In this document: positions 27,183 to 64,000 of the stretch, piece after piece
Layout: each line of letters opens with the position of its first letter
How positions within the stretch are numbered: position 1 is the stretch's first letter
From: Tubulanus polymorphus
Taxonomy: Eukaryota; Animalia; Nemertea
Direction of reading: 5' to 3'
NCBI RefSeq assembly: GCF_964204645.1
Contig: NC_134026.1
Location: 12,175,950 to 12,239,949, forward strand
Length of the DNA: 64,000 nucleotides
Notes under the pieces: model-generated
Told to the model about the DNA's origin: nothing
The model's input: the letters and a program-made list of their open reading frames with translations, nothing else
Databases searched by the model: none
Position numbers and translations under genes: made by a program

Positions 27183-27532
27183 TGTTACGCTCATTCTGTA
27201 CTGTACTTGTTTTTCTATTCTAAATCGAACTGTATGAACCTGTTGAAATATTTGAATTCTCCCGCCATGAATTAGTACTGGAAATCACGTGATTTCCTGG
27301 GCTTGTCGAGAGCTTTGGGTTTTGTTCAGTTCGCTTTGCGTGCTCGTCGTGTGTACATTCCTCCAAATTTTCACGTTAGTATAACTATTTGTATTATGCT
27401 TTTGATATTAATTTTGGTAGTATCTTATCATGTAATAATCCTTTCTTGTAGAAACATGTATTTTCGGTAATAAATCGTTGTAACAGAGAGAATACAGTCA
27501 TACAGTCGTCGTCGTATTTTCTGGTCGTAACA
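27183..27532 (+). repeat. 5' LTR
   Basis: TGTTACGCTC...GGTCGTAACA, a direct repeat of 33742-34092 (about 5 substitutions and 1 indel by eye). Confidence 0.97.
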
Positions 27533-30500
27533 TCGTTTGTGAAAATGGAGGACTTAGAACAAATGAAGAAGTCTCGAGCCGGATATAAAGCTAATGTAAC
27601 AAAGATAAGTAATCGTCTTCGCAAATGTCTCAAAGAGAATAGGAAATTTGAAGAAATCTTGCCCGTTGTAGAAGAATTAAAAGCCGCCTTCTCGAGATTC
27701 TCCGATTCCCATGATTCCGTTCATGAACGCTTACTTTCGGATGATGATATCGAACAATCGTTTATATATTATGACGCAGAAGAAAGCAAATATAAAGACT
27801 TGTTAATCAAAGTCAAGGGTTTAGGCGCTACGAGCCCAAGTCCAAGTCCGTCTGTTCCTACTACAGCGGAATCGGAAATTGACCAAGTCGAAAGAAGCGA
27901 AACCGAAAATATGAAAATGATGATCGACAATTTAATCAAGATGAGCCTCCCACAACAGGAGGTACCTGTTTTTTCAGGCGATCCGTCTGAATATTGTTTT
28001 TTTCTGAAATCGTTCGAAAGCATTATCGAAAGGAAAACTACTAGCAGCAGTGATCGTTTATACTACTTAATGCAGTATACCAAGGGTGACGTCCGCGAGC
28101 TGGTCCGTAGCTGTTTGGTACAGCAGCCCGACGAGGGTTACACAGAAGCTAAGCGATTAATTAAGCAATACTACGGTAATAGTTATGCGATTGCGACCTT
28201 ACTCGTGGATAAAATAATAAACGGGCCGATCGTTAAATCGGATGATGCTCACGCCCTTCAAAACTTGGCGATTCAGCTCGTAAGCTGTAAGAATACATTG
28301 ACCGAAATCGGATATATCAGTAAAGTGGAAAACCACTCCCGTTTGATCTGCGAAAGAAATGGAGAACAAAGGCAGATTATATCACCACATTTGAGGGTCG
28401 TGAGATATCAATCGAAGATATTTCTAGTTTCGTACAAACGGAGGCTCGAGTAGCGAATCATCCTGTTTTCGGGAATATTTCTGATGGGGTTAAGAAACCT
28501 TCACCTCATAAGTTGTCAAGATTCCCAGGGGCTTCTCCCGCTTCCCGAAATTTCGCTACTAATTCTCGATATAATTCAAGTAATGCATGGGTCAACTCAG
28601 CCCGTAATCCGAGAATTTGTAATCCGCCAACGAATAATTCAGCCGGTAATACGGGTACTGGTGCGTTGGTACTTCCAGGGTGCCCTTTGTGTTCGATAAA
28701 TGATCATTCTCTGGTGAATTGTCCAATATTTGTTAATAATTCATACGGGCAACGGGTTGAGTTTCTAAAGCTCAAGCGATTATGCTTTTATGTTTCGGTC
28801 CTAACCATATAGCTCGACAATGCAAAAGCAGAGTATCGTGTAGTGTATGAAACGGAAAACATGACAATCTATTGCATAGATATAATTTTCCCGCCAATAT
28901 TAACAATGACACTGTCGCGCCTACTTGTATCAACCCTACTGGTGTTTCTTCGTCACCCGTAGCGGCAACCGGTAGTAACACTCACTCAAATAATGCGATA
29001 AATCAATTCAATTAAACAAAGTAGGCCTATCATCGGTCGTATTGGTTTACCAATTGTACCGGTTAAAGTTAAGGGTAACGATAACGTTATTTTAACCTAT
29101 GCTTTGTTAGATTCGGGTAGTAACTCTACATTTTGCAAACAATCATTGCTCATCGACTTGGGGTATTCGCCCGACAGTTTAACTCGGAAAAATCTATCCC
29201 TGACAACGTTGACGGAGAATAACTGTTTAACTCAATCGTATGTCACTAATTTGGAGTTATCCGACATTGAGGATAATTTTACGAATGAACTGACTAATGT
29301 GTTTTCACGAAATTCATTGCCTATGACAAAAGACGATATTCCACGACAAAGTGACATAGACAAATATTCATATTAAGGCGACGTGATATTGCCCTTTATT
29401 GACGCTGACGTCGGATTGGTTATAGGAAATGATAATCATCAGGAACCGTTAGAGATTATAGGTAGCCATGACGACGGCCCTTATGCTGTAAGGACAATGT
29501 TCGGGTGGGTAATCAATGGTCCCCTGGGGGATAACGGACGGAGACTTAACTCTAAAAACAAGGTTTTTACTATTAAGACTGATGTAAGTGATGACATTCT
29601 GACCAGACAATTCGAATCTTATTGCAACAAAGAATTCAACGACAGAAATTATGATGATGACGTTTGTATGTCGCAGGAAGATAGGCGTGCACTTCAGATA
29701 ATGGAATCATCGGTTGTTTTGACGAGTGATAGTCATTTTCAGTTGGACTTACCTTGGAAGACTCAGCCGCCTAACTTACCTAACAATAAAGTCGTCGCTA
29801 TTCATCGACTGAGGAACCTTCGTAAACGTTCGTTAGGCGAGGCAAACTTATTTGAAGAATACGCAGGGTTCATCGATAAGATGATCAAGGCCCAGTTTTG
29901 TGAGATGGTACCAGAACACGATCTAGACCGCAGAGATGGCATGGTATGGTACTTACCCCACCATAGTGTGTATCATCCAACCAAAAAGAAAATAAGGGTT
30001 GTATTCAATTGCTCATCGAAATACATGAGAGTCTCACTCAATGACCGACTTTACCAGGGCCCGGACTTGACAAATTCCTTGATTGGTGTTTTAATACGCT
30101 TTAGGCAACAGCGAGTTGCTTTCATAGCAGACGTAGAAGGGATGTTTCACCAAGTGAGGGTAACTCCTAGTATGCGTGATGCGTTGAGGTTTCTTTGGTG
30201 GACAGATCGCAACCTGAACGAAGCAGCTACCGAGTATCGAATGCGTGTTCACCTTTTCGGTACCACTTCGTCACCCACATGCAGCAATTTTGCTTTAAGA
30301 AAGACCGCGATCGACAATAGGTCTCTGTTCGCCTCAGATGTCGCCGATACTGTACTCCGTAATTTCTACGTAGATGATTGTTTAAGATCCGTTCTCAGCG
30401 TCGACGAGGGAAAGCGACTAGTTAGTCAACTAATTCAGATGCTCACCAGAGGTGGTTTTAGACTGACTCAATTCTCGTCCAATTCCAGGGAAGTTTTGGA

Positions 30501-31580
30501 TACAGTTCCAGAGAGCGAGAGAGCTAAGACTGTGAAGTACCTGAACCTCGACAGCGAACAGTTACCGATGGAGAGAGCTTTAGGAATTTTATTGGACATG
30601 GAGTCTGACCAATTTCATTTCAGGGTAAAAAATGACTTGACGTCTAAGCCAAGTACTCGACGCGGTATATTATCCGCCATCAGCACACTATATGATCCGA
30701 TCGGATTTACAGCGCCTGTTTCACTCTCAGTGAAATCTGCGCTTCAAGAATTGAGTAGACTCAAACTGAGTTGGGATGATCCTATTCCCTACTGGTGCGA
30801 AAGACTGTGGAGTGAATGGCTTAAGGAGTTGCCGAAGTTGGAAGATTTGACAATAAGTAGATGTTTTAAACCAGCAGATCTCGACTGTGTCCCGTATACC
30901 GCACGACTCCACCACTTCGCCGACGCATCAGAGATCGGGTACGGGGCAGTGAGTTATATTCGCTTCGATTTTAATGGAAATGCTCATTGTTCTTTTGTTC
31001 TAGGGAAGTCTAGAGTCACTCCAATCAAGACCTTGAGTATCCCAAGACTCGAATTAGCGGCCGCAGTACTGGCGACACTGTTAGACAAGATGATACTGAA
31101 AGAATTGGATCCCCCTACTGAAAGATCGTGGTTCTGGACTGACAGCACTGCAGTGTTGAAGTACATTCATAATGAGAGCAGGCGTTTTCAGGTCTACGTA
31201 GCTAACAGAGTCTCCAAAATACGCGAACATTCGAGCCCTGACCAGTGGCATTTCGTCGAAGGTGTTTCTAACCCCGCCGATGATGCGTCACGAGGTCTGA
31301 AGCCGTCCCAGCTTACGCCTTCATCGAGATGGTTATCGGGGCCGGAATTCCTGTGTATGGACGAGAGTTCCTCGCCGGCATTTCCAGATGACGTTAACAT
31401 GGCAATAGACCCGTCAGATCAGGAATTAAAGAAGTCAGTGCTTTCTCACACCATCATCAAGAATGAAGAAGATTACTTGTTGAAATTCGTAGAACGATTT
31501 TCGTCTTGGCATATGCTGAAAAAATGTGTATCATGGATTAGGAACAGTTTAACACTCATACACTGGATAAACTTTGATAC

Positions 31581-31634
31581 TCACAAGAGCAAGCTTTCAC
31601 CTACATTCTGTAGGCATCGTCAGGCTTAATGTGA
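31581..31634 (-). ncRNA. Minimal type I hammerhead ribozyme (Penelope type)
   Basis: CUGACGA, stem II GCCUACA/UGUAGGU, GAAA, palindromic AGCU stem III, stem I UCACA..AGC/GCU..UGUGA. Confidence 0.75.
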
Positions 31635-32171
31635 CGTCATCAGATGTTGTTGATGTGACGTCACAGCCGGATCTCGTCAGCTGGTCTGTGAAGGCCCCCG
31701 CGCGCCATCTGCTGCCTTAAGGATGTTATTCCATACAGGGGGTAGAGCAAATCTCCCAAAGTCTTTATTCAGCGTGGGGTGTCTCAGGTATATGTAAAAT
31801 GACTCCTGAACACCTCGTACGAACCACCGGGGTTCCACCGTCAAAATGTCTGTGTTGCCTATATCAACAGAGTGATCAGGATTGTCAGTATGGATGTGTT
31901 GGGATACCTCTGACGTCACAGAGCTAGGTCGACGGTGTTCACCAAACCGGGCTCTCAAGGAGCGCTCAGTTTCACCAACATAACTCGCATCGCAAGATTC
32001 ACATTTAACATGGTACACCGGTCTAACTAATAACTGGCGTAACGTGTTCACCGGTTTAAAATACACACTAATGTTGTAGTCTTTCATCACCCGTCTGATT
32101 TGTTCAGACATGCCCTTCACATATGGTACTACGACCGATCTCTTACGTCACATCAACAACATCTGATGACG

Positions 32172-32225
32172 TCACATTAAGCCTGACGATGCCTACAGAA
32201 TGTAGGTGAAAGCTTGCTCTTGTGA
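32172..32225 (+). ncRNA. Minimal type I hammerhead ribozyme, inverted copy
   Basis: TCACATTAAGC CTGACGA T GCCTACA GAA TGTAGGT GAAAGCTT GCTCTTGTGA. Confidence 0.75.
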
Positions 32226-33741
32226 GTATCAAAGTTTATCCAGTGTATGAGTGTTAAACTGTTCCTAATTTGGATATTCCTGGATAGTAAAGAATGTTTA
32301 ATGGTATCATGGATCTTGAGATTCAAATCTATATTCTTACAGAAAATTCGCAAAGAGACGCCTGATACATTTCCTGGTAGAATAACGGTTACTGAACTGA
32401 GACGAGCAGAGCGTGAAATATTGAGTTACGTGCAGCGACGTCACTACCCAGACGAATGTTCTGGTATCAGTGACAAAACTTCTCGACTACTGCCTCTAGA
32501 CCCAGTTCGTATAGAGGGACTTCTAAGAGTTGGGGGAAGATTGAGACGGTCGAGTTTACCCTTTGAGATAAAGCACCCCATCATTGTTCCAAAGTCCTCT
32601 CATATATCTCATCTCATCATTGAATACTATCATCGCATGTTTGCTCATAAAGGTGTAGAGTTTATTTTATCTCAGATAAGACGTAAATTCTGGATAATTA
32701 ACGCTAAATCGATTATTAAGCGTATCTAACGCACATGCATCCCCTGTAGAAAACGAAAAGCTAAAGTAATGGAACAAAAAATGTCTGATTTACCTGGGGA
32801 TAGAGTAACTCCCGATTTGCCCCCTTTTTCAAACGTGGGAATAGATTATTTCGGTCCATTTCTAGTAAAACGGGGCCGGGCTCGCGAAAAACGGTACGGC
32901 TGTTTGTTCACATGTATGGCCAGCCGTGCTGTCCATATTGAAATGTGTCATTCTATGGATACGGATTCCTTCATATGTGCATTAAGGCGTTTCATTAGCC
33001 GTCGAGAATAAGAAGTGATAATGGCACTAATTTCGTCGGCGGACGACGCGAGTTGCGCCATGCGATCGAAAGCTGGAACCAGGAAAAAATTCACGAATTC
33101 TGCCTGCCGACCGCATCGCATATGGGTGGAACTTGGGAAAGAATCATCCGTACGATTCGAGATACTGTCACGGCCATCGCAGGCGAGCAAATCCTGGACG
33201 ATGAACGTTTCTCTACGTTAATGTGCGAGGTCGAAGCAGTAATAAATAATCGTCCTTTGACCGCAAATTCCGACGATCCTTCAGATTTGAACGCGCTATC
33301 ACCGAACCACTTGCTTCTCGCGAGATACGGTCCTCGGCTACCGCCCGGTAAATTCACTGAACGCGACAATTATTTAAGGAGATGGTGGCGTCAGGTACAA
33401 TATCTTGCGGATGTATTTTGGCGAAGATGGCTGTCCGAATATGTAGCCGTTTTGCAAAAGCGCTCGAAATGGTTTCGTCTCCGTAAAAACGTCCAAATCG
33501 GTGAACTTGTGTTAATTGTCGATGATAAAATCCCTCGATGCTCGTGGCTACTGGGGCGTGTAGTTTCTACATATCCCGATCAGGACGGGGTTGTCCGATC
33601 TGTCAAGCTGAGAACGCAAAACTCAGAGCTGATGCGACCCATTCAGAAGTGCATTCAATTAGAATGCTCTGTAGATGATTAATCTAATTGTAAATTGCTT
33701 CTTGTGATTAAATGCTAAAGCCTATTTAATGGGGCCGGAGA

Positions 33742-34092
33742 TGTTACGCTCATTCTGTACTGTACTTGTTTTTCTATTCTAAATCGAACTGTATGAACCT
33801 GGTGAAATATTTGAATTCTCCCGCCATGAATCAGTACTGGAAATCACGTGATTTCCTGGGCTTTGTCGAGAGCTTTGGATTTTGTTTAGTTCGCTTTGCG
33901 TGCTCGTCGTGTGTACATTCCTCCAAATTTTCACGTTAGTATAACTATTTGTATTATGCTTTTGATATTAATTTTGGTAGTATCTTAACATGTAATAATC
34001 CTTTCTTGTAGAAACATGTATTTTCGGTAATAAATCGTTGTAACAGAGAGAATACAGTCATACAGTCGTCGTCGTATTTTCTGGTCGTAACA
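33742..34092 (+). repeat. 3' LTR
   Basis: Direct repeat of 27183-27532, followed by the TSD ACCGG. Confidence 0.97.
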
Positions 34093-35979: not shown

Positions 35980-35985
35980 AATAAG

Positions 35986-37661: not shown

Positions 37662-37675
37662 CTATTTATATACCT

Positions 37676-39358: not shown

Positions 39359-40097
39359 CTAATTCATCCAATCAAATTTATCATTATTTTCTACTTTATG
39401 TTTCATAGAATCTTTATTATCAATATCTGTAACTATTTTTTTATTATTATCTTTATTAGTGTTTGCTCCTAATATTTCATTTACAGTGTTTGGCTCTAAT
39501 ATTTTATTAGCATCAGTTAGATCTAATTCATCTTTATTAGGTGTTGCTAATAATAAATCTTCATATAATTCTTTACCATTTACTTTTTTTATTTGAAACA
39601 AACTTTGTAACATATTTAAATGGGTGTTCTATAAATTCTCTTAAACCAACACGTTCTATTACATTAGTAATATGTACCTTTGTATTCATATGTTTATTCC
39701 AATTTGATGGAGCGTTTGAAAATTCACCTTTACAATAATCACAATAATTTCTTTTTTCACTAATATTTAATATTATTTCATTATTTGATGTAGAAGGTAT
39801 TACATTATTAGATGTAGAAGGTATTGCATTATTAGATGTAGAAGGTATTGCATTATTAGATGAAGAAGGTATTACATTATTAGATGTAGAAGGTATTACA
39901 TTATTATCAATTACATTACTTAAATTATCAACGACACCACTTTTATTATTATCGATTTCTATTAGTTTAGTTTTATAAATTTTGAAAATAGGATCAAATA
40001 TCAAAGCTATATTACAAGGTATTACATAATATAAACTATCATTATTTTCATGTGTATCGATGTATGGAATATGTTTATATACTTTACCTCCTTCCAT
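39359..40097 (-). pseudogene. Polinton Zn-finger protein with an NNVIPSTS octapeptide repeat (positional equivalent of 55241-56397)
   Basis: MEGG start, 24-bp repeats and a YCDYC...WNKHMNTKVH finger. Two overlapping ORFs suggest a frameshift. Confidence 0.7.
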
Positions 40098-40130
40098 TTA
40101 TTATATAAATTTTTATTAAAGTTAAAATTC

Positions 40131-40872
40131 TAATACATAACACTATTTAATTGAGAATTTACAATATTTAATTGCGCGTCAGATATAATATAAATGTGCA
40201 TTCTTGATTCCTTTATTCTTTGTCATGAATAATTGTATTCCATCTTTAGTGTTCTGTAATTTTTTTCCAGAACCATGCAATGAATTATCCTCTGTTGTTC
40301 TAAAATTTAACCATAATGCATATTTATTACCGGTATAATAATCAATTTGATTAATATTACAATTTTCAGATGATTTTACTTTTTCATTCATAAAATGTTT
40401 TCTAATTTCTGGCCATTGATCAATCATTCTCATTCCTTGACAAAATATTTTATTTGCTATTCCTTCGATAGTTATTTCTACTTTTGTTATTTCAGGATTA
40501 TAATAATTATCAACATTTATTGCAACATTAGTATATGTTGCAATGGTGAAAAATATTAATATACCTTTAGTAGATCTTCTTGGGAAGTTAATATTCTCAT
40601 TAATAATTTCATCTTTTGCATTAATAGTTACAGTTTTAAATTTATCAATATAATCATATAATAATGAAAATCCTTGATTGTATTTAGTTTGAAATATACT
40701 TGAAATATTTTCATTAGTTACTGTATCATATTCTAAACATATATTCGATAATTTATAACCCATATCTTTATTAATGCTAGATATTACAATTTCATTAACA
40801 GGAGCAAATGTTATCTCAAATATAACATCTTCTTGAATTGCGTATTTATATAAAGGTGCATTATTATTTATC
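40131..40872 (-). pseudogene. C-terminal part of the Polinton major capsid protein
   Basis: Near-identical to the C-terminal 60% of 56430-57677; truncated at about 40872. Confidence 0.88.
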
Positions 40873-41779
40873 AAACCAGTGACACTCGGGTCATCAATGT
40901 TCAAATCGAATTGAAATAAGATAATTATTTATTGTGGGATTCGAATCTAATTGAAACGGAAACATTGAAGTCATCAAAACACACATTCATTATGCGTACT
41001 GACATGACCCAGTTTTGAAAGATCTGACATGTAGTGACGCCTGCGCACTCAACCGATTTCTGGACTAAGAGAATTTCCCCCAACACTCACTAATGCACAT
41101 GTGTTAAAAACGGAGACATTGGAAACATTACGGTTTTTGCCGTAATTCTAGCAGCCCTCCGCGACTCAACGACCTTGATTTAAACTTGATCAATTCAAAA
41201 TCTGTTTATTGACGCTTTTGGTTACATGAACTGATCAGCAATATACTTAAATGAAATAACCGGAATAACAAGAAATCAAAAATATTAAAGAGGTAACAAA
41301 CAAATGCCCGTAAACCTGTCAGACACGCGAACGCCGGACTCGTAAACTCTTGGACTCGGACCAGCTGAGCAATAAATTCATAAAATTGACTTTGAAATTG
41401 ATTGTGGAGAAGAGAGGGAATAATTCGATAGCTCTTCCTCATAAAGAAGGGAGAAATTTCGGAAAGAAAACACAACATGGCTACTAATTGAACGGAGCCA
41501 AATTTCCGATGTTTACGGCTCGACAGTGCCTTTATAACGTGGATTTATCAAAATTCCCATGCAGTATCTGGAGATTGAAGTGAGCTGAAGGATATCATAC
41601 GGATTGTATCGGCGACAGCGGTAAGGTAAGGAAGCCTTTACACTTTTAACAAAAACTATGTGGAAAAGGGAAAAAAATGATAAATATAGCTGCAAAGCAG
41701 CAATATCGGGTTTCTGCCTTGCTGGATACAATGTCGTATAAGGGTGCGTGCAAACATTTCACCGAAAGCAGTTCATAAC

Positions 41780-43100
41780 ATTCCCCTTTTTAAAGGAGCG
41801 CCACCTAGGAGTCAACTTATGACATGGATATGTTGACCCACAAGGGCTACTACGCGCACATTGCAACCTCGATTCTATCGCCAACGGTTAAGCACCTAGT
41901 AGCAAAAATCATTGTTTTCAAGGTCCCCTGGTGGCAGCTGTATGAACTAATTATGCAGGATGGCATATTACACATGTCTTTGTACTTATACCAAGTTTTG
42001 TGATTTTCATAATAAACAGACCGCATTAAATGCGAAAAGTGGATTCTGAAATCGATTTTTCAAAATTTACGCCCCCTAGTGGTTAAAATGGGAACTAATC
42101 ATATAAGGGGTTCGTTTCGTTTAGTAACCAGGTACAATGTCAATTTTCATAAAAATCCATTGATACCCTTAGTCGATATAGATGAAAATGTGAATTCCAG
42201 CGTCTTATAGGTGGCGCTACTGGCGAACCATATGAGCTACATAGTTATACCATACATCAATACAAGCGTCTTCGCAAGGGCTACTGGTCACTCGTTGCAA
42301 CCACAATTCTATCTCCACCGGTTAAGGAGCTAGGAGCAAAAATCTCTTTGAAAAATTTGGTGGCCCATTTTCGAGCACGTAAAGCCCAAACGGTTAATCG
42401 CAGATAGGGCGTGCCATTGACTTTTTTTAGCCTCCAGGCTGTTATGAACAACTTTCGTGCTCGGCCGAAGCTGAAAACTCAAAGACAAAAATTTTTCTCA
42501 TACAGTAACTTTTCGATGTCAGAATTTTCAAAAGTAAAACGCCCCCTGGTGGGTGAACGGGGACCCCAATCTAAGATCCCTTCGACTTACCTCAAGGTAC
42601 TTGTGATCCGTACATCTCACGAAAGTTTCAAGTAAATCCGTCAAGGAATATTGTAATAAGATACTAAAAAACTACAGATCTAGTACACACGCTCTATCAC
42701 TGCTTATAGGGACACTGACACAAACAGACGCACTGACGCGCTGTGGGAATGACACGTAGGCAATACACATACGTAGATGGATACTGTTTTAAACGGGCTT
42801 AAATTTCGATGTTTAGAGGCTCACAGTGAGTAAACAGTGCAATTCTGATTAATATCACGTACAGTATTTGTCAATGCAGCGTAGTACTTGTGATACAGAA
42901 TGGCTTCACCGACAGTGAAAGTAAGTTGCAGTTGTTTACATCCTTTCAGTAAGATCCAGTGTGAAAAAGAATATAATAATAATAATAATAATAATAATCA
43001 GCAGGAATACAATAGGGTTTCTGCGAAAGCAGCAGAAACCCTAATAAGAAACACGCGAATCTCAATAGGGTTTTCTGTGATGTAACAGAAAACCCTAATT
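41780..43100 (+). mobile_element. Helentron-like non-autonomous repeat with two tandem 3' hairpins
   Basis: GCGCCACCTAG/GCCCCTAGTGG motifs, an (AAT)n run, and hairpins TAGGGTTTCTGC..GCAGAAACCCTA and TAGGGTTTTCTGT..ACAGAAAACCCTA. Confidence 0.6.
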
Positions 43101-43570
43101 ATTTTGTTCATTATAGAATGTTAAAATTTTACATAACAGAGAAAATGAAATTAAAGAAAGTTCATAGATATAGTGAATTTAATCAATCGAAATGGTTAGA
43201 AAAATATATAGATTTCAATACTCAAGAAAGAACAATTTCAGAAACAGATTTTGAAAGAGATTTCTTTAAATTGATGGATAATAGTTTTATGGTGAAAAAT
43301 GTGAAAATATTAGAAATAAAATTGATATTGAATAAGTAGATAATTCTGAAAGATTAAGACATTTCCAATCAAGTTCTAGACATTTAGGAAATAAAAGATT
43401 TGAAGATTATTTAACAGCAGTAAAATTAAAAGAACAGCAATGAAATTTAATAAACCAATTTTCATAGGTTCAACTGTTTATAAATATCAAAATTATTAAT
43501 GTATGATTTTCAATACAATGTTTTACAACCACACTTTGACGAAAAACATATTGAAATACTATATTTTGAT
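43100..43570 (+). pseudogene. polB: Polinton PolB palm fragment (motif B to motif C)
   Basis: FNQSKWLEKYIDFNT, FFKLMDNSF, KFNKPIFIG, MYDFQYNVLQPHFDEKHIEILYFD; aligns with 63138-64000. Confidence 0.92.
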
Positions 43571-43990
43571 TATGTAACAGCTGATACTCCAATATTATTA
43601 AAATACAATAATGAAATGTTAATAAGAAGAATTTCGGAATTAATACCTAAACAATATGAACTTAATATTTCATATGGTGAAAAATAATTAATACAAATAA
43701 ATGGATTAAGGGATGTTTGGACAAAAGATGGATGGACAAAATTAAAAAATATAATTAGACATAAAACAAATAAAAAGATCTATAGAGTTAGAACTAAATT
43801 AGGATTTGTAGATGTTTCTGAAGATCATAATTCAATAAAGAATAATTGTAATGAAATCAAACCAACTGATATAGAAATTGGAGATGAATTATTACATAAA
43901 AGATTTTACTCAAGAATGAATCATATGTCATTTGATGAAATAATTGATTATATCTATAACATAGAACCTGATACATTAGAAGAAAAAAAA
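43571..43990 (+). other. Intein N-terminal splicing (Hint) region inserted in PolB motif C; decayed, C-terminal half deleted
   Basis: YFD|YVTADTPILLK (block A), VWTKDGWTKLKNIIRHKTNKKIYRVRTKLGFVDVSEDH (block B), IKPTDIEIGDELLH. In frame with PolB, with one premature stop at 43685. Confidence 0.88.
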
Positions 43991-43994
43991 TATT

Positions 43995-46900
43995 TTAGTG
44001 AATATTAGTTTATGTAATTCTTTTCAATATATATCATATAAAACTATTGAACATAGAGAGTTTTTACTTTAACCTCAGGAACTTAGAGAATGGAATTGCT
44101 TATATCTAAAACCAGGATTATATAATTCAGAAACATTAGCACAAGAAATTAATAGAAGAGCTCGAATAAAACTGGGTTGTGATGTCGGATTTGGAATTAG
44201 ATTTATTATAAGTGATAGTTCCGATAGAATAAAGATAAGGTTAGCTAACGAAGAACAACATAAATTTATGGTAAGAAAACCATTTAATCTTTTGACTGCT
44301 CAAGATGGCGACTGACGACAAGTCGTGTGTATATTCGCTCTGCAAAATATGGATTTAAAAGTAGAAACTGGCTTCAAAGACATTATATGTTGAGCAGATC
44401 GAGTGGTATGATTAAACCATTTCTTTCTGAAGTGGTTTTAAGACAAAACCTCAGCTGTGTAGCTTGTTTGATTTTGATTTGAAACTGTCTAAAATAGTCA
44501 TATGGTCGTCTATACACGTATATTACTGAACACTACTGAAAGATCTGTTCCGCTCGAACAATCATATCAAATACGAAATGCGTTGGCCTACCGTTTGGCC
44601 CCTGTCCAAGTAAACCTGGTGTTTCCGTGAAATTGTGCCAAGGTGATCTGTACTTATGTATGTACTGTAACGATGTAAGGTCCGGAAGAATTAATCCGAG
44701 TAACGATTAACGATCCATGTTGGGCGTACATCATTTTTGGTCTACAATGTTCGACCAATGCCAACATAATAAAAACGGTAGTACGACATTTTACCGGCGA
44801 AGAGATATATGAAGTTATGGTCATTCGCAGATACGCAATACACTGATACGCAATCAACGATCCCTATTGGAGACTTCCTAAACAGACAAGACTCGAAAGC
44901 TAGATCAGGGGCTTCGGCCAATTGCAATGATATTATATCTGCCATCAGGAAACTAGAAACAGTGCAAAAATCGCCATGTGTTGTACTTAATGCTTATGAT
45001 ATCACAAAAATCCCACAATTTCGACCGGAAGAGTTCGATGATGCTTCTACGATAACCAGAATAAACGAGTTAGAACAGAAAAGTCATGAAAATATTGTGC
45101 AGACCAGAGAGCTTATTACTGAATTAAAACAATCCATCGAGGAAATCAAATCTTTGGCTCACGCACCATTGTATTCGTCGGTTGTAAGGGACTGCCCGCC
45201 AGTACCCACCCCTGTGCCGACTGTTCCGACTAATCAGATTGAGAATCCTCAACCAGAAGACACTCCAACTGTTCCGGATACGTTCGACGCAGAGGAGGGA
45301 GATTTGCAACTCGCGGAAGAGGGGGTCGCATTAACAATAGACCACCGTCTGACCGTAATGATCTATTAAATGTAAATGATTACGATAGATACGGATCTCA
45401 ATCATCTATAAACACCAATAGACAGTCTGACAAGGGGGGAACTAACCAATTTACGTACCTGTGGAGCGAGAGACGTCGTCAACGCAGGAAGCAAATATTC
45501 CATGGGAAAAGTAATCTGGAAGGAGGATTCAAGGGCGCGTCCGAACTCGAACGCCACTTGTTCATCTACTGAGTCGATAGTTCAACAACTTCAAGTGATA
45601 TTAAGGTTTATTTAACGGACCATAAAATTGACTATAAGAATGTAATACAGGTGTCTAATGACCTAGATAAATTTAAATAATTCAAATTAACAGTATATAA
45701 ATCGCTATTCTCTCAATTATTTGATGAAGGGTTGTGGCCTGAGGGTACTTGCTACAGAGCATTTAAAACTCGCAGAAATAATTATGGATTCAATAATTGA
45801 TCAGTAAAAGCTTGGTAATTTTGTATATACTCTTAACTACATTTTCTATGATGGGTACTCTTAACCTCGCCTCCTACAACTCACGTGGTTTAGGACCTGG
45901 TAAATCATCATATATTGAACATCTGGCACGGACCAATGACATTACCGGTATTCTAAACAAAATATTGGCAACATGAGGATAGATTGTGTGAACTAACGGT
46001 TCAGGGTTTCAATTTACACGCCAAATCGGGAATGTGTATTACCGAATTACTTAGAGGTAGACCTTATGGTGGCGTTGCTATTATGTGGAGACAATCACTA
46101 GATATTAAGGCTACGCCTATTGATTTTGACTCCAAACGGCTTGTGTCCTTTTAATTCAAAATATGAAGTGTGGAACTTCATTTATTTTGGCGAACGTTTA
46201 TATGCCATGTGACACTTGTTATGAAGAAAACAATGCTAGGGAATTCAATGATATTTTGATACAAATTTCCGAGATTGCAAAGAACTAAGATATAAATGAG
46301 GTGATTATTGGGAGAGATTTAATACTGATTTTACACGAATTAACTCCCTGCATACTAAAGTACTTGATGACTTTTTAAGGAATGAGTCCTTCACATGTCC
46401 ATTGGAAACATTTCAATCTGGTGTCAGATTCACGTACAGCGGCCCCACTAATGTAGAGCACTCAACTATCGATCACTTTATTGTAAAAGACAATATGAAA
46501 GACAGATTACTCTCATACGAATGCATACATGAAGCTGACAATTTTTCAGATTTCACTCCAATTCAAATGGTTATTAAAACAGAGGTAAACAATCTAGCGT
46601 AAACAGTAGATAATAATACACATGGAAGCTGTGGGATTAAATGGCAAAAGGCCACCAAAAGTAACATTGAGTAATATACCTCAATCCTTGACGATATGTT
46701 GTCATAAATTAAGATCCCCATTGATGCATGTAACTGCTTAGATTATAAATGTACACCGCATTGCAGTGAAATAAGTCGATATTATGATGACATTTTACAT
46801 AATATGTCTTTTTGCTGGTTTTCTAGCAATTCCGCATTCCAGAAACACCTCTACAAACAGGATTCCTGGTTGGAATGAAAACGTTAAACAATACAGGGAC

Positions 46901-49740
46901 GCCGCGTTATTCTGGCACGGTCTCTGGAAAGACAATGATTGCCCTAAGGACGGTTTGATAGCAGATATTCGACGAGAAACACGTCGTAAATATCACTTAC
47001 TTATGAAAGATTATCTTTCTGCTCAAAAGTTTGCAGAAGCTCTAAATAATAATAGAAATAGAGGTTTCTGGACTGAGGTTAAGAAAATGAGAAACAGCAA
47101 AAAGGCATGTCCTGCTTCCATGGATGGTTTAACAGTTCTTGTTGAAATTTCCAACGTCTTTTTTGTTAAATACCAGAAATTATTTAATTCGACGCATTGC
47201 AGTCAAGGTGATTTTGACAAGTTACACTTTAGACTAGATAATTTAATTAAAAATAACTGTTGTAAAGCTGATGAATGCCTTTGCGCAAGAAATCACTCGG
47301 TATCTGCACATGATATTAAAAATGCGCTGAAAAAGATACGTAATTATAAGAAGGACGGTACATTACGGCGTCTTCACTGATCACATATTGAATGGTTCTA
47401 ATAAGTTGATGACTCATGCATCACTGTCATTCTCGTCAATGATCAGACATTCGTGCATTCCTGAAGACATTGTGATAACAACTATTACCCAAATACCAAA
47501 CGATAATAGGAAACCCTTGGTTGAGTCCTCTAACTATCGTGGTATTGCACTTAGTTCTATATTCAGTACAATTTTTGATTATATCATTCTTAGTAAAAAT
47601 CTCATACAGTTTGGGTTTAAACCCGCCCACTCAACAATGGGCTGTACTTATGTGTTTGACGAAGTAGTTAACTACTATAATAAAAGGGCTACAGGAGTGA
47701 ATGTTGTATTGTTAGATGCGAGTCAAGCATTTGATCGCGTACATTACAGCGAACTATTTGATATTCTCATAAAGCGAAGAAATTTGCCCGCTATTAATAA
47801 AGTTCATTTTAACCTCTTACAGAAACCAAAAAAATCAGAGTCAGGTGGAATAACACATACTCTAATTTTTTTAAAGCGTCCAACAGCGTGAAACAGGGAG
47901 GTGTTTTGTCTCCAATACTATTTTCCATATACATCGATAAGCATCTGATTAAGCTTAGAAAATCAGGCGTAGGGTGCTACATTGGTAATATATTCTTTTG
48001 GGCTTTAGGCTATGCGGACGACATAATATTACTAGCACCTAGTAAATACTCCATGAATACTATGTTAAGATTGTGTGTAGAATTCTCGGTAGAATTTTAT
48101 GTACTCTTCAATGCTAAAAAGACTGTTTATCTATACTTTCCAGGTGAGAATGAGCATACTTACTTTGACAATAGTATTATTTTTCAAGGAACCATTATAA
48201 AAGAATCACATTCCGCTTAACATTTGGGCAACTTGATAGGGATCAACTTTGACGCTTTACGCGTTCAAGAATGTATATTGGATTTCAACAGACGGGTCAA
48301 TTTACTAATGTCTCAATTCAGTCACGTTAACGCTCATATACGCTTTAAACTTTTCAAATAATTTTGTTCATGATTGTATGGCTGTACACTTTGGGATTTC
48401 ACAAAAAAATAATATAGCAAAAATGTTCACTGCTTGGAGAAAAGCCATCAGAAAAGTACTCGGTTTACCTTATTGTACCCATTGTAACTTGCTCCATTTA
48501 ATTTCGGGCGATGACCCTATTGAACATCGAGTGTATAATAGATTTATTAAATTTTTCTCTGCCATCAAACAATCCACCAATAGAATTGTCAGAACATGTG
48601 GTTATCTTGCTCTTAATGGCAGCGGATCTCAATGCTCAAATTATATTACCTTTTCCACGCGATTTTTCGATATTGAGGACTGAACTTGCAGTACCACAAA
48701 TCTAACGGTTTCAGTCAGATGAAGATACATTGAAAAAGGCCGCCGCAACTATCGACTTCATGCACTTGTCCCAATCTGCAACTGATGAGTGGATTATTGC
48801 GGAATAGCGCGACATTATTATCGAACTATGTATTCCCTGATATGTATATAATGTAACTGGTCAGTGGATATTATAAATTTTGAATTTTGTATTGTAAACT
48901 TCGTTTACGAATAAAATATATATATATATATATTAGGCTAAACTTTTAGGACGTAAGTCCAGATAAAACTTTCACAAATGTTGATGCTACACCAAATACA
49001 ATACATTTTGCGCATTTTTATATTTATTGCAATTCGATAGACCCTGTAAAAACATTCGAAGCAAATGAAAGTTCAATTTGTAATTCTAGTATTTACCATC
49101 AATTTGAAACACAAATAAATTATCTGAATTTTATCTGTGATTTTAAACCTTGTATTTCACAATTTGATAATTACAAATTAGAAATTATAATGGATTTAAT
49201 TGATTCAAATAATTTTCCTGTAATTCATGAAATAGTTGTAATATAAGATGTAAAGAATAATTTTTTTGTAATATAAATGTGAATATTTGTTGGACCGAGT
49301 ACATGTTTTGGATTTGATTTTAAATGTGAGAAAGAAATGAAATTTGATGTAAATGATGTAATAACACATATTAAAAATACTATATTTTTAAATGAAACAA
49401 CATTTGATGATAAAACAAAAAATAAAGAAACTCATAATGTAGAAAAAAATTACTGATTCAATTAGAAATTCTTTTAGATTTTATGAATTAGATGAAGATT
49501 TTATTATTAATGATATAAAAAATATTATAACTGAAATATATGAAAATGAAACTAAAAATAATATAAATGTTGAATGAATTATAACTTAAATAACAAAATA
49601 CTTTGAAGATAGTAAATTTTTTGATATATAAATGTATCCAAAGTGGATAATAAATGGATTATATAATGGCGCCTTATTATCAATGGGAACTGTTGATTAT
49701 ACAATGTTGTTAAAAAATTATTTAAAATAGGAAACGTGAA
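43995..49740 (+). mobile_element. Decayed Polinton segment (penton and homologues of the 61978 and 61621 genes), split by a LINE
   Basis: LVNISLCNS...KPGLYN...HKFMVRKP before the LINE and AKLLG...FYIYCN after it, followed by VGPSTCFGFDFK and KWII..LYNGALL. Confidence 0.88.
44286..48932 (+). mobile_element. Full-length decayed non-LTR retrotransposon (APE-RT; RTEX/Proto2-like, clade uncertain)
   Basis: ORF1 about 44740-45794 ending LWPEG; APE SYNSRG, GRPYGGVA, STIDH; IPGWN; RT QFGFK, LDASQAFDRV, VKQGGVLSP, GYADD; AATAAA plus a (TA)n tail. Confidence 0.9.
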
Positions 49741-50205
49741 TCCCAGAAAAAAAGTTTTCACTCGGTACCTTTGAAGTCGGGTCGGTCGGGTTACGGCAAA
49801 CAAACCATTAATATGGGATGGCCTAAAATTCATATGATGTCACATATCAAAGGGGGCCGAATATATACAATATTCAGCCCTCGACCTATACTTGTAGTTT
49901 GCTGCTTAATATTTTCAGGTCACAAGAAATTACAATTTATTACAAATTCTATCAAACAGAAAACACAGCGCTCATCTTCTGCTACGATTATTCAGCCTAT
50001 TTTCATGTCAAACGTGCACGCGTTTCAGCATCACTTTTAGTAGTGTACTGTACGAGCTTGTGTGTGTGTGTCGTCTAGCACTCCGCGCGCACGTGGAGGC
50101 CTCGTGTAAGTAATTGTTCGCTTACACTTTAATGTCAATCAAAACAATCACCGGGTATTAAAATGAAACAATACCTATTGCGGATGTGTGAAATAATTAC
50201 ATCCT

Positions 50206-50611
50206 AGTAATAGGGGTAATGGGCTTTCAGGCCAAAGGTCGAACGGTCGAGCCCATTAAAAAACAAAATATTAAAAGTAATTAAAAAACTATAATATATT
50301 TTCATAACCGCGTGCATTTTATATCAAAACTAAATATTTATTCTAAGATATCAATAATATAAAAAGCATATTGTATTAAATCAATTGGTCGCTCCACTTC
50401 GCTACCGCTCCGCTCCGCGACCAATTGATTTAATTACAATACACACATTCAAATAATCAAATATATTCAAATGATAATAATTATTCTATTATTCAACTGA
50501 AATGCACGCGGTTATGAAAATATATTATAGTTTTTTAATTACTTTTAATATATGTTATTAATGAACTCGATCATTAAACCTTTAGCCTGAAAGCCCATTA
50601 CCCCTATTACT
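50206..50611. repeat. Terminal fold-back palindrome, 406 bp
   Basis: Perfect stems of 27, 52 and 17 bp separated by unpaired bubbles, with a 24-nt pyrimidine-rich apical loop. Confidence 0.95.
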
Positions 50612-50693
50612 CTTAAAATATTCATATATATATGAATAACATTTAAATTATTGAACTTCTAAAATCAATTTTAATAAAAAATATAGTATTAAA

Positions 50694-50945
50694 ATGGAAG
50701 CAAATAAGTACTACTGCCCAACATGTAATATCGATATAGATAAATCCCAAAAAGCAAGACACAATAAAACTAGAACACATTTAGAGAATAAATTGAAACT
50801 AGAATATTTACAGTTATATTCAGAACAGTTAACAAAGGGAAAGAAATTTATTGAATTATGGAATAATGATCCAAATAATGAACAATACGTTGAGGAATTT
50901 ATTATCAAGGAATCGAAAGAACTTATCAAAAGCAGCGAGGAATGA
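50694..50945 (+). CDS. Small C2H2 Zn-finger protein fused to an HNH-tail module
   Basis: YYCPTC...RHNKTRTH, similar to the first PolB finger at 3866, followed by LQLYSEQLTKGKKFIELWN as in 51024-51686. Confidence 0.7.
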   Translation: MEANKYYCPTCNIDIDKSQKARHNKTRTHLENKLKLEYLQLYSEQLTKGKKFIELWNNDPNNEQYVEEFIIKESKELIKSSEE

Positions 50946-51023
50946 AAAAGGATGATGTTGGTCGAAGAAATGGAAGAGGATTCTAAAATGTTAACCAATT
51001 TAGTAAAAAAATACGTATAATAA

Positions 51024-52893: not shown

Positions 52894-52899
52894 AATAAG

Positions 52900-53985
52900 A
52901 TGAAAAAAGAACAATATTTAAGAGATTTATATTATAACCCAGAAAGTGAAGTATCATATTCTAACGTTTCAGAATTATGGAATAAAATTAAATCTGATAA
53001 TAGCAATATAAAATATAGTGAATTAAAATCATGGTTACAAAATCAACCAACATATCAAATCCACAAGAAAATGGATAAAACTTATTTAACAAGAAAAGTT
53101 ATGGTTTCATATATCGATCAACAATGGCAAGCTGATTTAATTGATATGAAGAACTTAGAAGAATATAACAAAGGATATTTTTGGATACTAAATGTTATAG
53201 ATATATTCAGTAGATACGCATGGAGTATCCCGATTAAAAATAAAACTGGTATAGAAGTTACAAATTCTTTCAAATTAATATTTAAAGAAGCTATCCCAGA
53301 TAAAATACAATTTGATGAAGGTAAAGAATTTTATAACAAACATTTTAAAAAACTATTAACTGATAACGATGTAGAATATTTTTCAACACATTCAGATAAA
53401 AAAGCATCTGTTATAGAAAGATTTAATAAAACATTGAAAACTAGAATGTGGAAATATTTCACCGCTAATGAAACATATAAATATATCGATGTGTTAGATG
53501 ATTTAGTTAAAGGTTATAATAATTCTAAACATAGTTCTATAAATATGAAACCTATACAAGCTAGAAAAGAAGAAAATTCAGAAATAGTTTGGAATAATTT
53601 ATATGGAGCATTTGTTACACATGATTTTGGAGAACCTAAATTTAAAATAGGACAACATGTTAGAATTTCTAAATATCGAAAAACATTTTATAAAGGTTAT
53701 ACCCCTAATTTTACTGAAGAAATATTTAAAATTAAAAAGATAATATTAACTAAACCATTTGTTTATAAACTAGAAGATCTAAAAGATGAAGAAATATTAG
53801 GTTATTTCTATGAACAAGAATTATCACTTGTACCAAATCCAGATGAAATAGAATACAAAATAGAAAAAGTATTGAAAACTAAAACTCTTAAAGGAAAAAA
53901 GTATTCTTTGGTGAAATATAAAGGATATGATGATAAATTTAATGAATGGATTTTATCTAGTAAAATTAAAAGAATAAATGAATAA
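52900..53985 (+). CDS. Retroviral-like (c-)integrase with C-terminal chromodomain
   Basis: WQADLIDM, IDIFSRYAW, QFDEGKEF, IERFNKTLK, YNNSKHSSI, and chromodomain YKIEKVL...LVKYKGY....NEWI. Confidence 0.97.
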   Translation: MKKEQYLRDLYYNPESEVSYSNVSELWNKIKSDNSNIKYSELKSWLQNQPTYQIHKKMDKTYLTRKVMVSYIDQQWQADLIDMKNLEEYNKGYFWILNVIDIFSRYAWSIPIKNKTGIEVTNSFKLIFKEAIPDKIQFDEGKEFYNKHFKKLLTDNDVEYFSTHSDKKASVIERFNKTLKTRMWKYFTANETYKYIDVLDDLVKGYNNSKHSSINMKPIQARKEENSEIVWNNLYGAFVTHDFGEPKFKIGQHVRISKYRKTFYKGYTPNFTEEIFKIKKIILTKPFVYKLEDLKDEEILGYFYEQELSLVPNPDEIEYKIEKVLKTKTLKGKKYSLVKYKGYDDKFNEWILSSKIKRINE

Positions 53986-54593
53986 AGATTTGTTTATATT
54001 TGAACCACATAATATGTTAATAACTGGAGTTACAAATTGTGGTAAAACACACTTCATATTAGATTTATTAGAAACTATTTATCAGAATCATTTCGATAAT
54101 ATAATATTATTCTGCCCAACTTATGAAATGAATGAAACGTATAATAGAGATATAGTTTTTAAAGATAAAAAGTTTATTATATTAAATTCAAAAACAGTGA
54201 AAGATAATTTAGATAATTGTATAAAAATTGCAATAGATATTTATAAAGGATCTAATACATTATTTATTATTGATGATTGCGCAAATTTACATGATTCAAA
54301 AGTTAGAGAAAGTGAGTTATGTTATTTAGCTTTCTCTGGGAGACATTTTTGGGATAACAACATGGGTTTTAAATCAGAAATATAATTCAATTGTGAAAGA
54401 TTTTAGAGAGAATATAAGATTTCTAGTTTTATTCTACAACAAAGATAGAAAATCTATGCAACAATCATTAGAAGAAAATCAAATTATACCTACTGAATTA
54501 CATGATGAATATATGAATAAATTAAAGAATAATAAAGGTTCCAAATTACTTATGAGATTACAATTTCCATATGAATATAAATTTATAAAATAA
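53978..54593 (+). pseudogene. Packaging ATPase with a one-base frameshift
   Basis: GVTNCGKT and IIDD. CATTTTTGGG at about 54345 versus in-frame CATTTCGGG in the 37050 copy. Confidence 0.9.
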
Positions 54594-56429: not shown

Positions 56430-57677
56430 TTAATACATAACACTATCTAATTGTGAATTTACAATATTTAATTGCGCGTCAGATATAATATAAATGTGCA
56501 TTTTAAAATTTTTGATTCCCTTTTTCTTTGTCATGAATAATTGTATTCCATCTTTAGTGTTCTGTAGTTTTTTTCCAGAACCATGTAATGAATTATCCTC
56601 TGTTGTTCTAAAATCTAACCATAATGCATATTTATTACCGGTATAATAATCAATTTGATTAATGTTACAATTTTCAAATGATTTTATTTTTTCATTCATA
56701 AAATGTTTTTTAATTTCTACCCATTGATCAATCATTCTCATTCCTTGACAGAATATTTTATTCGCTATACCTTCGATAGTTATTTCTACTTTTGTTATTT
56801 CAGGATTATAATAATTATCAACATTTATTGCGCCATTAGTATACGTTCCAATAGTAAAAAATATTAATATACCTTTAATAGATCTTCTAGGGAAGTTAAT
56901 ATTCTCATTAATTATTTCATCATTTGCATTAATAGTTACAGTTTTAAATTTATCAATATAATCATATAATAATGAAAATCCTTGATTGTATTGAGTTTGA
57001 ATTATACTTGAAATATTTTCATCAGTTACTGTATCATATTCTAAACATATATTCGATAATTTATAACTCATATCTTTATTAACGCTAGATAATACAATTT
57101 CATTTACAGGAGCAAATGTTATCTCAAATATAATATCTTCTTGAATTGCGTATTTATATAAAGGTGCATTATTATTTATCAATTCAAAGTCTAATGGAAT
57201 TTTATATTTGCTTCCATATATACTTTTTATCAATTTATCTACATCATTTGTTAATATTGCGCTATTAGCTTCTGATCTTAATTTATTTTGGTTTTCCGAT
57301 TGGATGCCTTGAAATATCATATTATTTCTATTTTCTTTAGTTAACCATAAATCTTTATAATGCATAAATAAATTATAATCATCTAATGAGAAAACTGTTT
57401 CCGGACCAATCTTTATTGTTAACTTTTTAATCAAATATCTTCCAACATTATCAACAACATAATTATTATTATTACCGGCTACTGTTATATCGGCTGATAA
57501 ATAAATACTATTTGGAACGTAAAAAGTATTTTGTGTTAATCTAGGAATTCTAACATATAAAGTTTCATCGGGATTAATATTTGAAGGGTTATGAGTAATT
57601 ATATGATGTGATCTTTCTGCTTTAATAGCGTTAGATATTCTAGAAATCTTCGAAGGACTTATATAACTCCCACTCAT
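56430..57677 (-). CDS. Probable major capsid protein (double jelly roll)
   Basis: 415 aa, beta-rich; NPSNINPDETLYVRIP, NVGRYLIKKLTIKIG and YALWLDFRT...LHGSG resemble recalled invertebrate Polinton MCPs; size and context fit. Confidence 0.8.
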   Translation of the reverse strand: MSGSYISPSKISRISNAIKAERSHHIITHNPSNINPDETLYVRIPRLTQNTFYVPNSIYLSADITVAGNNNNYVVDNVGRYLIKKLTIKIGPETVFSLDDYNLFMHYKDLWLTKENRNNMIFQGIQSENQNKLRSEANSAILTNDVDKLIKSIYGSKYKIPLDFELINNNAPLYKYAIQEDIIFEITFAPVNEIVLSSVNKDMSYKLSNICLEYDTVTDENISSIIQTQYNQGFSLLYDYIDKFKTVTINANDEIINENINFPRRSIKGILIFFTIGTYTNGAINVDNYYNPEITKVEITIEGIANKIFCQGMRMIDQWVEIKKHFMNEKIKSFENCNINQIDYYTGNKYALWLDFRTTEDNSLHGSGKKLQNTKDGIQLFMTKKKGIKNFKMHIYIISDAQLNIVNSQLDSVMY

Positions 57678-61994: not shown

Positions 61995-62750
61995 TTACTC
62001 TTTACATCTTATAACTAATTCATAAATTACAGGAAAGTTATTCAAATCAATTAAGTATCCATTATGATTTCTTATTTCTAATTTAAAATTATTAAATTTA
62101 GGAATGCAAGGTTTAAAATCACATTCTGTTAAATTATAATTTATTTGAGTTCCAAATTGTTTAACATTTTTTAGTGGTAAAATATTTAGTATACTAGAAC
62201 TACAAATTGTTTCTTTAGTTGCTTCGAAAGTTTTTGTAGGCTCGATTAAATTGCAATAAATATAAAAGTGTGTAAAAGGTATTATATTTGAGCTGCCTTC
62301 TGCGTTTCCAGTAACTGTAAGCGGTTTAATTCCTAACATTTTAGCCAGTGATTTGTTTACCATAAATTTATGTTGTTCATTAGATATCTTTATTCTTATT
62401 TTATTAGTACTATCAATTTTATTAAATTTAATTTCAAATACAGAAGTGCCCCCGATTTTCAACCGAGCTCTTCTATTAATTTCCTGCGCTAATGATTCTA
62501 AATTATATAATCCTGGTTTTAAAAATATATGAAACCATTTATCTTTATTTCTCATATAAATCATAAACCCTCTATGTTCAAAAGTTTTATCTGATATATT
62601 ATAAAAAGAATTACATAAACTTATATTTACTAATTTTAAATCTACACAATTCTTAAATTCTCTATCTAATTGAACTAGTAAATTATGAGATTTATAATTT
62701 GTAAGCCTTCTAGAATCTACAAATATTCTGTATTCTTTTAATTCTACCAT
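61995..62750 (-). CDS. Probable minor capsid protein (penton, single jelly roll)
   Basis: 251 aa; IFVDSR, LVNISLCNSFYNIS, PGLYN, FYIYCNLI and LEIRNHNGYLIDLNN. Confidence 0.78.
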   Translation of the reverse strand: MVELKEYRIFVDSRRLTNYKSHNLLVQLDREFKNCVDLKLVNISLCNSFYNISDKTFEHRGFMIYMRNKDKWFHIFLKPGLYNLESLAQEINRRARLKIGGTSVFEIKFNKIDSTNKIRIKISNEQHKFMVNKSLAKMLGIKPLTVTGNAEGSSNIIPFTHFYIYCNLIEPTKTFEATKETICSSSILNILPLKNVKQFGTQINYNLTECDFKPCIPKFNNFKLEIRNHNGYLIDLNNFPVIYELVIRCKE

Positions 62751-63137: not shown

Positions 63138-64000
63138 TTAACACGCTAGAATCCTTTTCATAATCTCATTTTCTTTTGTTTCTTCTCTTTTGAATTTTAT
63201 ATATTCATCTAAATTGCAACCATAGGCGACTGTGTGGATTCCATCATCTAAAATATATCTTTTATCATCAAATGGGTTTAGACTTATCTTCTCTATCTCT
63301 TCAATATACATTTCATGATCTTCAGATCTTAAACATTTCATCTTATGTTTTCTAACTTCTTCATTAAATATACAATTGATGTAATCTTTAAAATGAATAT
63401 TCTTTTCAACAACGCTTTTGGTTATTCCTTTTAACTTTTTAGCTTCATGTTCTTTAGTTTTATATGAATACATTTTAGATCTAATACCAATGAACTCTAT
63501 CATTTCTTCACCGCCTAATTCATCCTTAAACTTCCCTGGAACTTTTTTATTATCATTGCTAAACAATTCATGATCTTTAGGATAGTTACTAAAATCAAAA
63601 TGATGTTTTAATGTTTTTAAATCATCTGTTATGTTATCAGTTTTTATCTTTAATATGAAACTGTCGGTATCAAAGTATAGAATTTCTATGTGTTTTTCTC
63701 CAAAATGAGGTTGTAGTATATTATAATAAAATTTATACATTAGGAATTTTGAAATTTCTAGAACTGCAGCACCAACATAAATAGGTTTATTGAACTTCAT
63801 TGAAGTTCTTTTCATTTTAACTGCTGCTAAATTTTCATCAAATATTCTGTTACCTATAAACTTAGGATATGATTGTAAATGCCTAATTCTTTTACCATTA
63901 CTGACTAACTCGATATCATTTCTATTTCTAATATTTTCACAAGTCTTACCATAGAATGCATTATTCATTAACTTAAAAAAATCTTTATCAAAATCAGTTT
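63138..64000 (-). CDS. polB: Protein-primed family B DNA polymerase, C-terminal part, intein-free allele
   Basis: KLMNNAFYGKT (motif B), YFDTDS (motif C), GKFKDE, RSKMY, KGI and DDKRY. Confidence 0.97.
   Translation of the reverse strand, partial: TDFDKDFFKLMNNAFYGKTCENIRNRNDIELVSNGKRIRHLQSYPKFIGNRIFDENLAAVKMKRTSMKFNKPIYVGAAVLEISKFLMYKFYYNILQPHFGEKHIEILYFDTDSFILKIKTDNITDDLKTLKHHFDFSNYPKDHELFSNDNKKVPGKFKDELGGEEMIEFIGIRSKMYSYKTKEHEAKKLKGITKSVVEKNIHFKDYINCIFNEEVRKHKMKCLRSEDHEMYIEEIEKISLNPFDDKRYILDDGIHTVAYGCNLDEYIKFKREETKENEIMKRILAC

Follow-up and report, generated by a model that had tools for sequence, protein, structure and literature searches.

The 64,000-nucleotide window analysed here, a stretch of contig NC_134026.1 filed under the species label Tubulanus polymorphus, is crowded with Polinton pieces and fragments of reverse transcriptases, and also contains a BEL/Pao long terminal repeat (LTR) retrotransposon. 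One of the Polinton pieces, at about 43043-44282, is a broken gene for the protein-primed family B polymerase (pPolB) that runs into a foreign insert. The pPolB piece is open from 43499 and ends with ILYFD, and the insert begins at 43571 in the same frame. It comprises 142 codons with a sole in-frame stop at 43685-43687 and occupies the catalytic D/TDS (pol-c) site of family B polymerases, where the slash marks the point of insertion. The original prediction, made from the letters of the window alone, had called 43499..43995 an intein remnant inside a Polinton pPolB, and the reading frame, the site and the profile matches given below bear this out.

The insert and the polymerase remnant

The TIGR01445 model (intein_Nterm) matched the insert with 26.1 bits, above its cut-off of 24.5 (E value 1.3e-5). 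A profile of 120 non-Polinton inteins from RNA-primed family B polymerases (PolBs) and topoisomerases, with zero Polinton rows, scored 121 bits (independent E value 1.9e-38) in a six-frame scan and 130 bits on the insert alone. This was the only match in the window, i.e., the scan found no second intein piece anywhere in the 64,000 nucleotides. Shuffled controls reached at most 8.3 bits (461 of 500 shuffles gave reported scores). In a search of 1.84 billion representative proteins, 1639 matched the insert at E 0.001, most of them with an insert behind a YGD-like motif. Judged by these sequence comparisons, positions 43571-43996 are confirmed as the N-terminal half of a true pol-c intein in a Polinton protein-primed polymerase. 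The original prediction had named a match to Hint or intein profiles as a check, and both models provided it. A Pfam search named no family for the fragment, and a PDB sequence search of the insert gave weak matches only (E 0.098 and 1.4).

The missing Pfam family and the Tyr at residue 1 would also suit an insert of another origin: an in-frame stretch that arose by chance, a Hint domain of the Hedgehog type, or a chimaera in which a Polinton had joined a giant-virus fragment. We regard this as scarcely conceivable, given 121 bits against 8.3 for the shuffles, and given 23 complete pPolBs that share the identical junction and resume their exteins behind the insert; one of these, P0002, refutes it. 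Chance insertion and the chimaera were rejected on the profile score and the shared junction, and the Hedgehog-type domain because the relatives resume the polymerase past N/T and carry LAGLIDADG motifs.

The window copy is a dead remnant, marked by frameshifts, the stop, Tyr1 and a deletion. Using tblastn, we aligned 43043-44014 with P0002. The upstream polymerase is frameshifted near 43284, 43427, and 43476, and only its last 24 codons (43499-43570) lie in the intein frame. The insert holds intein blocks A and B plus a linker, with block B reading SEDH and a compensating indel pair near 43835-43843; its residue 1 is Tyr where class-1 splicing requires Ser or Cys. The alignment with P0002 shows that the insert breaks off directly before the first LAGLIDADG motif, and blocks F and G with the last Asn and Thr+1 are deleted. 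The copy cannot splice because the deletion took the C-extein along with the endonuclease and the C-terminal splicing blocks; the loss of the latter two had been foreseen. The deletion would have cost about 1.6-1.7 kb if the gene order matched that of the empty element described below. Behind the junction at 43995 follows a 291-base piece with 77% DNA identity to the gene at 61995-62750, read in a different frame, and the intein frame closes at 44006-44008. The idea that a deletion near 43990 joined the intein to this downstream gene is correct for the DNA (junction at about 43995) and wrong for the protein: we rejected an in-frame fusion, since the junction joins DNA and not reading frames.

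Complete relatives, filled copies and empty alleles

The best match among longer proteins was P0002, a pPolB of 1693 amino acids (aa; PF03175, E 5e-17) with a 354-aa intein that spans Ser1184-Asn1537 and is followed by TDS. Over 167 aa its intein matches the window piece at 56% identity, and the two exteins reach 64% and 62% against the empty allele of the window. Further searches and cluster look-ups yielded 474 proteins with 23 complete pPolB inteins among them. Extein BLAST assigned 19 of these to pPolBs and a Pfam PF03175 match assigned P0388; the remaining three were placed there by likeness or cluster membership. PF03175 matched P0002, P0375, P0388, P0343, and P0346. The complete copies resuming with N/TDS that the original prediction had looked for are therefore at hand among public proteins, as P0002 and 22 others with Ser1 and LAGLIDADG motifs.

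These 23 inteins are 333-354 aa long and form 16 groups at 90% and five at 60%, with a between-group identity of only 39-56%. Ser1, Thr+1, the last Asn and the block-F Asp are each present in 23/23, as is the acidic residue of both LAGLIDADG motifs; block B was matched in 21/23, and the C-terminal ends read HN (18), KN (four) or SN (one). Among eight filled proteins scanned with Pfam, LAGLIDADG_3 was above cut-off in seven (none for P0343) and Intein_splicing only in P0375. The predicted model of P0201 (mean pLDDT, a predicted score on the local distance difference test, 91.6) found its best folds in the homing-endonuclease inteins TliVMA, PI-PfuI, and PI-SceI (E 6e-20), as expected of a Hint fold with an embedded two-motif LAGLIDADG domain. 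We predict that the complete relatives splice out of their polymerases.

At 90%, the clusters of the pPolB inteins can be as large as 136 members; many members are fragments that lie on contigs of 100-800 kb, which would fit integrated, decaying copies. P0329, P0343, P0346, P0375, P0389, and P0391 also bear an upstream Endonuclease_7 (HNH-type) domain; P0388 shows, by eye, what we take to be a VSR-like motif instead. A pattern scan of metagenomes gave one pPolB among 42 loci (L151, whose 4.2-kb contig carries the polymerase only), and the contig of P0002 was not among them. In IMG/VR, none of 117 loci from two scans was an intein-bearing pPolB (110 were giant-virus-type PolBs and seven neither type), and an Atlas search with P0375 gave only matches under 0.9. 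P0202 is filed under a symbiont metagenome-assembled genome (MAG) whose printed name refers to Ctena. We take Ctena to be a lucinid clam, so that the 2.5-kb P0202 contig may be host DNA.

Sequencing runs under the species label of the window were aligned to 42600-44900. Raw reads of run X4 covered the insert at a depth of about 200-230 compared to 5-14 in the flank at 44294-44755, and depth did not drop at 43570. If the flank is single-copy, the intein-bearing family has roughly 10-25 copies, nearly all of them filled; the deepest contigs of runs X2 and X3 gave 9-10. The stop at 43685 and the change at residue 1 are private to the window copy: in run X4, 200/204 reads disagree with the window at the first base of the stop and 205/208 do so at codon 1. 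In run X2, the contig of greatest depth (323 of 327) departs from the window at 43997, and most family copies therefore likely lack the window's deletion. Of the picture of a lone remnant, the dead copy remains, as one member of a multi-copy family within a clade of intein-bearing pPolBs.

The same window holds an allele without insert. The minus-strand pPolB at 63138-64000 reads ILYFD/TDS with the site between 63669 and 63668, and belongs to a Polinton element of about 50600-64000 that runs off the window end. Filled and empty copies share 75.3% DNA identity over 332 bases, ending exactly at 43570/63669, and 26 of the 30 bases preceding the site agree. The predicted empty allele is thus real, with TDS following the site; by its 75% DNA identity it belongs to a sister Polinton family and not to the family of the intein copy. 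Depth across the empty site was about 490 at a looser threshold, which indicates that this genome is rich in empty alleles. At 63657, 11 bases off the site, coverage declines from about 620 to 495 and 92 reads diverge from the empty reference; these reads could be filled relatives. A much closer pair is found among the public proteins, where empty P0346 and filled P0343 are 99.5% and 98.3% identical on the two sides of the site. Their cluster lists 15 members, of which five are filled, one is empty and nine do not span the site. Scanning with a single protein brought up no further empty pPolB.

Inheritance, homing, donor and host

We compared the inteins in four quick trees whose supports are from the Shimodaira-Hasegawa-like approximate likelihood ratio test (SH-aLRT) only; one tree omitted 31 of its 75 rows for being long, odd or redundant, and the two outgroup-bearing ones omitted 35. 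The pPolB inteins, including the window row, form one clade (SH-aLRT 99, 98, 99, and 99), and on this sequence basis the lineage is shown to have entered pPolBs once. With one archaeal outgroup this clade nests among giant-virus-type pol-c inteins at 98. In one intein tree P0212 stands next to the window row, which is uninformative because the two have no alignment columns in common. The extein tree, with intein columns dropped, repeats the intein branching and unites the filled pPolBs in one clade (100/99) with two nested empties, the window's and P0346. All 11 parsed IMG/VR pPolBs (of 15 loci) are empty and fall outside this clade. Pairwise identities of intein and extein are 65 vs 68-70%, 76 vs 71-80%, 55 vs 43-56%, and 43-47 vs 40-52%. 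The exteins of P0388 gave no BLAST match at E 1e-3 to seven other pPolBs, whereas its intein is 39-46% identical to theirs and falls inside the pPolB intein clade, which makes a jump of the intein to a distant pPolB class likely.

Two further occurrences touch the same radiation. Topoisomerase II proteins (P0008, P0020, P0105, P0138, and others) carry same-family inteins at a D/TDG-like site; these form one clade inside the pol-c radiation and likely record a change of host gene. Many giant-virus-type PolBs, including several of P0046-P0070, have a second related intein behind a KxSxN motif.

We hold with good confidence that the insert is a pol-c intein's N-terminal half, located in one dead copy of a multi-copy Polinton polymerase gene of a likely animal genome; its complete relatives are predicted to splice and likely home. 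In a complete allele, the intein would split the catalytic D-T-D motif and a polymerase would arise only after class-1 splicing. Conserved residues, fold and established intein chemistry suggest an acyl shift at Ser1, aided by the TxxH of block B, followed by attack of Thr+1 and cyclisation of the last Asn. Within one nucleus, empty alleles of related elements would be targets for cleavage by the two-motif LAGLIDADG domain, and a cut allele would gain the intein when a filled copy served as repair template; the retained catalytic residues make such homing between Polinton copies likely. After its entry, the intein would have co-diverged with one pPolB clade, leaving occasional empty alleles and making one jump to a distant class. 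For the broader proposal, a giant-virus-derived homing intein that still moves in animal nuclear genomes by germ-line conversion and class crossing and on whose splicing Polinton replication depends, we see the chances as evenly divided.

A number of points weigh against this account. Splicing and cleavage of the empty site by the intein endonuclease are predictions from sequence. None of the reads or contigs examined from this species displayed a complete intein, whose presence here is suggested by depth and by contigs departing at the break, and the copy numbers presuppose a single-copy flank. The complete relatives are known as protein sequences, and P0201, P0314, and P0330, with flanks too short for BLAST, probably belong to the pPolB class by likeness or cluster. 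Plain vertical inheritance also predicts the agreement of intein and extein trees, and this permits the main rival: an ancient passenger that entered once, was inherited only vertically and still splices but no longer homes, the empties being rare exact losses. Intein and extein identities move together, and one gain plus two losses account for the extein tree. On the other hand, both endonuclease acidic residues are kept in 23/23 despite the 39-56% between-group identity, the filled/empty pair P0343/P0346 is 98-99% identical, and P0388 requires a lateral jump; we therefore consider a mere passenger unlikely. The tree comparison that the original prediction proposed has delivered a shared branching, which vertical descent would leave as well.

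The donor can be questioned in the same way. With three archaeal outgroups, the branches enclosing the pPolB inteins have supports of 82-93, none of them starred, and resolve no sister group, so that no starred branch enforces the nesting. The same family of inteins occurs in MAG polymerases from Asgard archaea and elsewhere, those of Asgard type and from Bacteroidales being 33-41% identical. These observations would suit a donor other than a giant virus: Polintons and giant viruses may have acquired the intein separately from archaea or phages, or Polintons may have been the donors. Yet the C-terminal motif of the pPolB inteins matched giant-virus-type PolBs in 15/15 viral and 41/42 metagenome loci and occurred in no prokaryote genome, nesting is at 98 with one outgroup and 93 with three, and the giant-virus inteins are far more diverse. 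We find a donor other than a giant virus rather improbable and transfer from a giant DNA virus to a Polinton likely; the originally proposed kinship with giant-virus pol-c inteins holds in identity and in the trees. The MAG contigs concerned, archaeal (including Asgard) and Bacteroidales (L190, L191, L193, L194, and P0443), have giant-virus-type pol-c inteins of 34-41% identity and may be misbinned.

No host gene lies within the window, Polintons are found in many protists, and several relatives come from metagenome assemblies, as would be the case if the intein were real and its host a protist, a fungus or a mixed assembly. An animal host is nevertheless likely, because the window also contains a young BEL/Pao element. 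Its 351-base terminal direct repeats are 98.3% identical, its nearest Atlas clusters are eukaryotic with Arthropoda the commonest, and BEL/Pao elements are described as confined to metazoan genomes (PMC3118150). In addition, two studies contributed four runs, filed under a single species label, that cover both insert and flank. We consider a non-animal host very unlikely.

The features of the window are collected in Table 1. The BEL/Pao element has an internal 125-base inverted duplication (31537-31661 and 32145-32269, 100% identical), which suggests an internal inversion. The Polinton hallmarks, rve integrase and A32 ATPase, are present in the empty element and lost from the intein remnant. 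The candidate penton gene, named so in the original prediction, gave a predicted fold of pLDDT 30 and no PDB match, and its label is tentative. More Polinton pieces, 79-94% alike to the empty element, lie at 11385-11771, 13464-14352, 25544-26240, 34520-37699, 40087-40874, and 48993-49741; to these comes a separate pPolB N-terminal part at 4203-6780 with a PF03175 match in 5674-6780. Two tandem arrays, at 8143-8850 and 11846-12874, repeat every 74 or so and 152 or so bases. A 397-codon frame at 331-1524 on the minus strand matches RAG1 weakly (E 0.085) and is possibly a Transib-like transposase.

Table 1. Positions and supporting matches of annotated features in the 64,000-nucleotide window
Feature	Position	Strand	Evidence
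BEL/Pao LTR retrotransposon	27183..34092	+	Peptidase_A17 E 6e-41, DUF1759, DUF5641
Degenerate pPolB N-extein, palm region up to Asp before the site	43043..43570	+	tblastn, three-frame reading
N-terminal half of pol-c intein	43571..43996	+	TIGR01445, non-Polinton intein profile
In-frame stop, private to window copy	43685..43687	+	Reads of run X4
Piece of gene homologous to 61995-62750, out-of-frame junction	43995..44282	+	77% DNA identity, 291 bases
Retroviral-type integrase with chromodomain, empty Polinton	52894..53985	+	rve E 8.5e-9 (above cut-off), Chromo E 8e-5
A32-type packaging ATPase, truncated frame	53978..54385	+	Pox_A32 E 4.7e-9
Candidate major capsid protein of empty Polinton	56430..57677	-	Capsid_N E 0.0075, below cut-off
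Candidate minor capsid (penton) gene	61995..62750	-	DUF5901 E 1.5e-4, below cut-off
Empty pPolB allele of sister Polinton, cut by window end	63138..64000	-	62-64% identity to P0002

Known inteins and Polintons

A review describes metazoan genomes as being without inteins (PMC8529194). A survey places the inteins of eukaryotes in fungi, algae, some protists and giant viruses, and its passages on the subject do not mention Polintons (PMC5784728). The accessible portions of PMC12220804, PMC5718144, and PMC3671162 mention inteins in general terms only. One sentence in PMC11071308 suggests that endonuclease insertions in pPolBs may stem from intein invasions. The literature searched yielded no description of an intein in a Polinton polymerase; an annotation in supplements, subscription papers, Repbase or InBase could be older. 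The clade of complete pol-c inteins in Polinton polymerases is apparently undescribed so far. A multi-copy intein clade in a likely animal genome would qualify the rule of intein-free metazoan genomes, a claim limited by the fact that the intein resides in a mobile element and not in a host gene. It would further attest in concrete form to an exchange of DNA between giant viruses and Polintons, whose polymerase classes share little beyond the catalytic motif, and offer a natural case of homing among dispersed copies within one nucleus. The idea of intein invasion of pPolBs, suggested in PMC11071308, becomes testable.

The HNH and VSR insertions described for Polinton pPolBs (PMC10748475) are likewise endonuclease domains within a Polinton polymerase. 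No splicing domain is described for them, and they lie elsewhere in the protein than the pol-c intein; the main text contains none of the words "intein", "homing" and "LAGLIDADG". The insertions fit the remark in PMC11071308. Polintons/Mavericks (adintoviruses; PMC8502044) have pPolB, rve integrase, A32 ATPase and candidate capsid genes in common with the elements described here, and the main text contains "intein" 0 times. The insect iridovirus intein cited in PMC549080 is also an intein in a DNA virus of animals; unlike the pPolB inteins, it is of the Glutamine type and resides in a large virus not described as an integrated element.

Archaeal pol-c inteins (Nanoarchaeum NEQ068 and polymerases of Archaeoglobaceae, Nanoarchaeota and Asgard MAGs) share site and chemistry with the pPolB inteins but sit in another class of host protein, with identities of about 25% for the outgroup rows and 39-41% for the Asgard-type rows. 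A close parallel is the Mimivirus R322 intein (PMC549080), which shares the D/TDS site, Ser1, TxxH, LAGLIDADG and Asn/Thr with the pPolB inteins and has 351 aa compared to their 333-354. The pPolB inteins are 37-43% identical to the Mimivirus intein P0436. In contrast to the giant-virus PolB, however, the Polinton extein is protein-primed, has no BLAST likeness to the viral PolB and sits in an integrating element that is inherited in host chromosomes.

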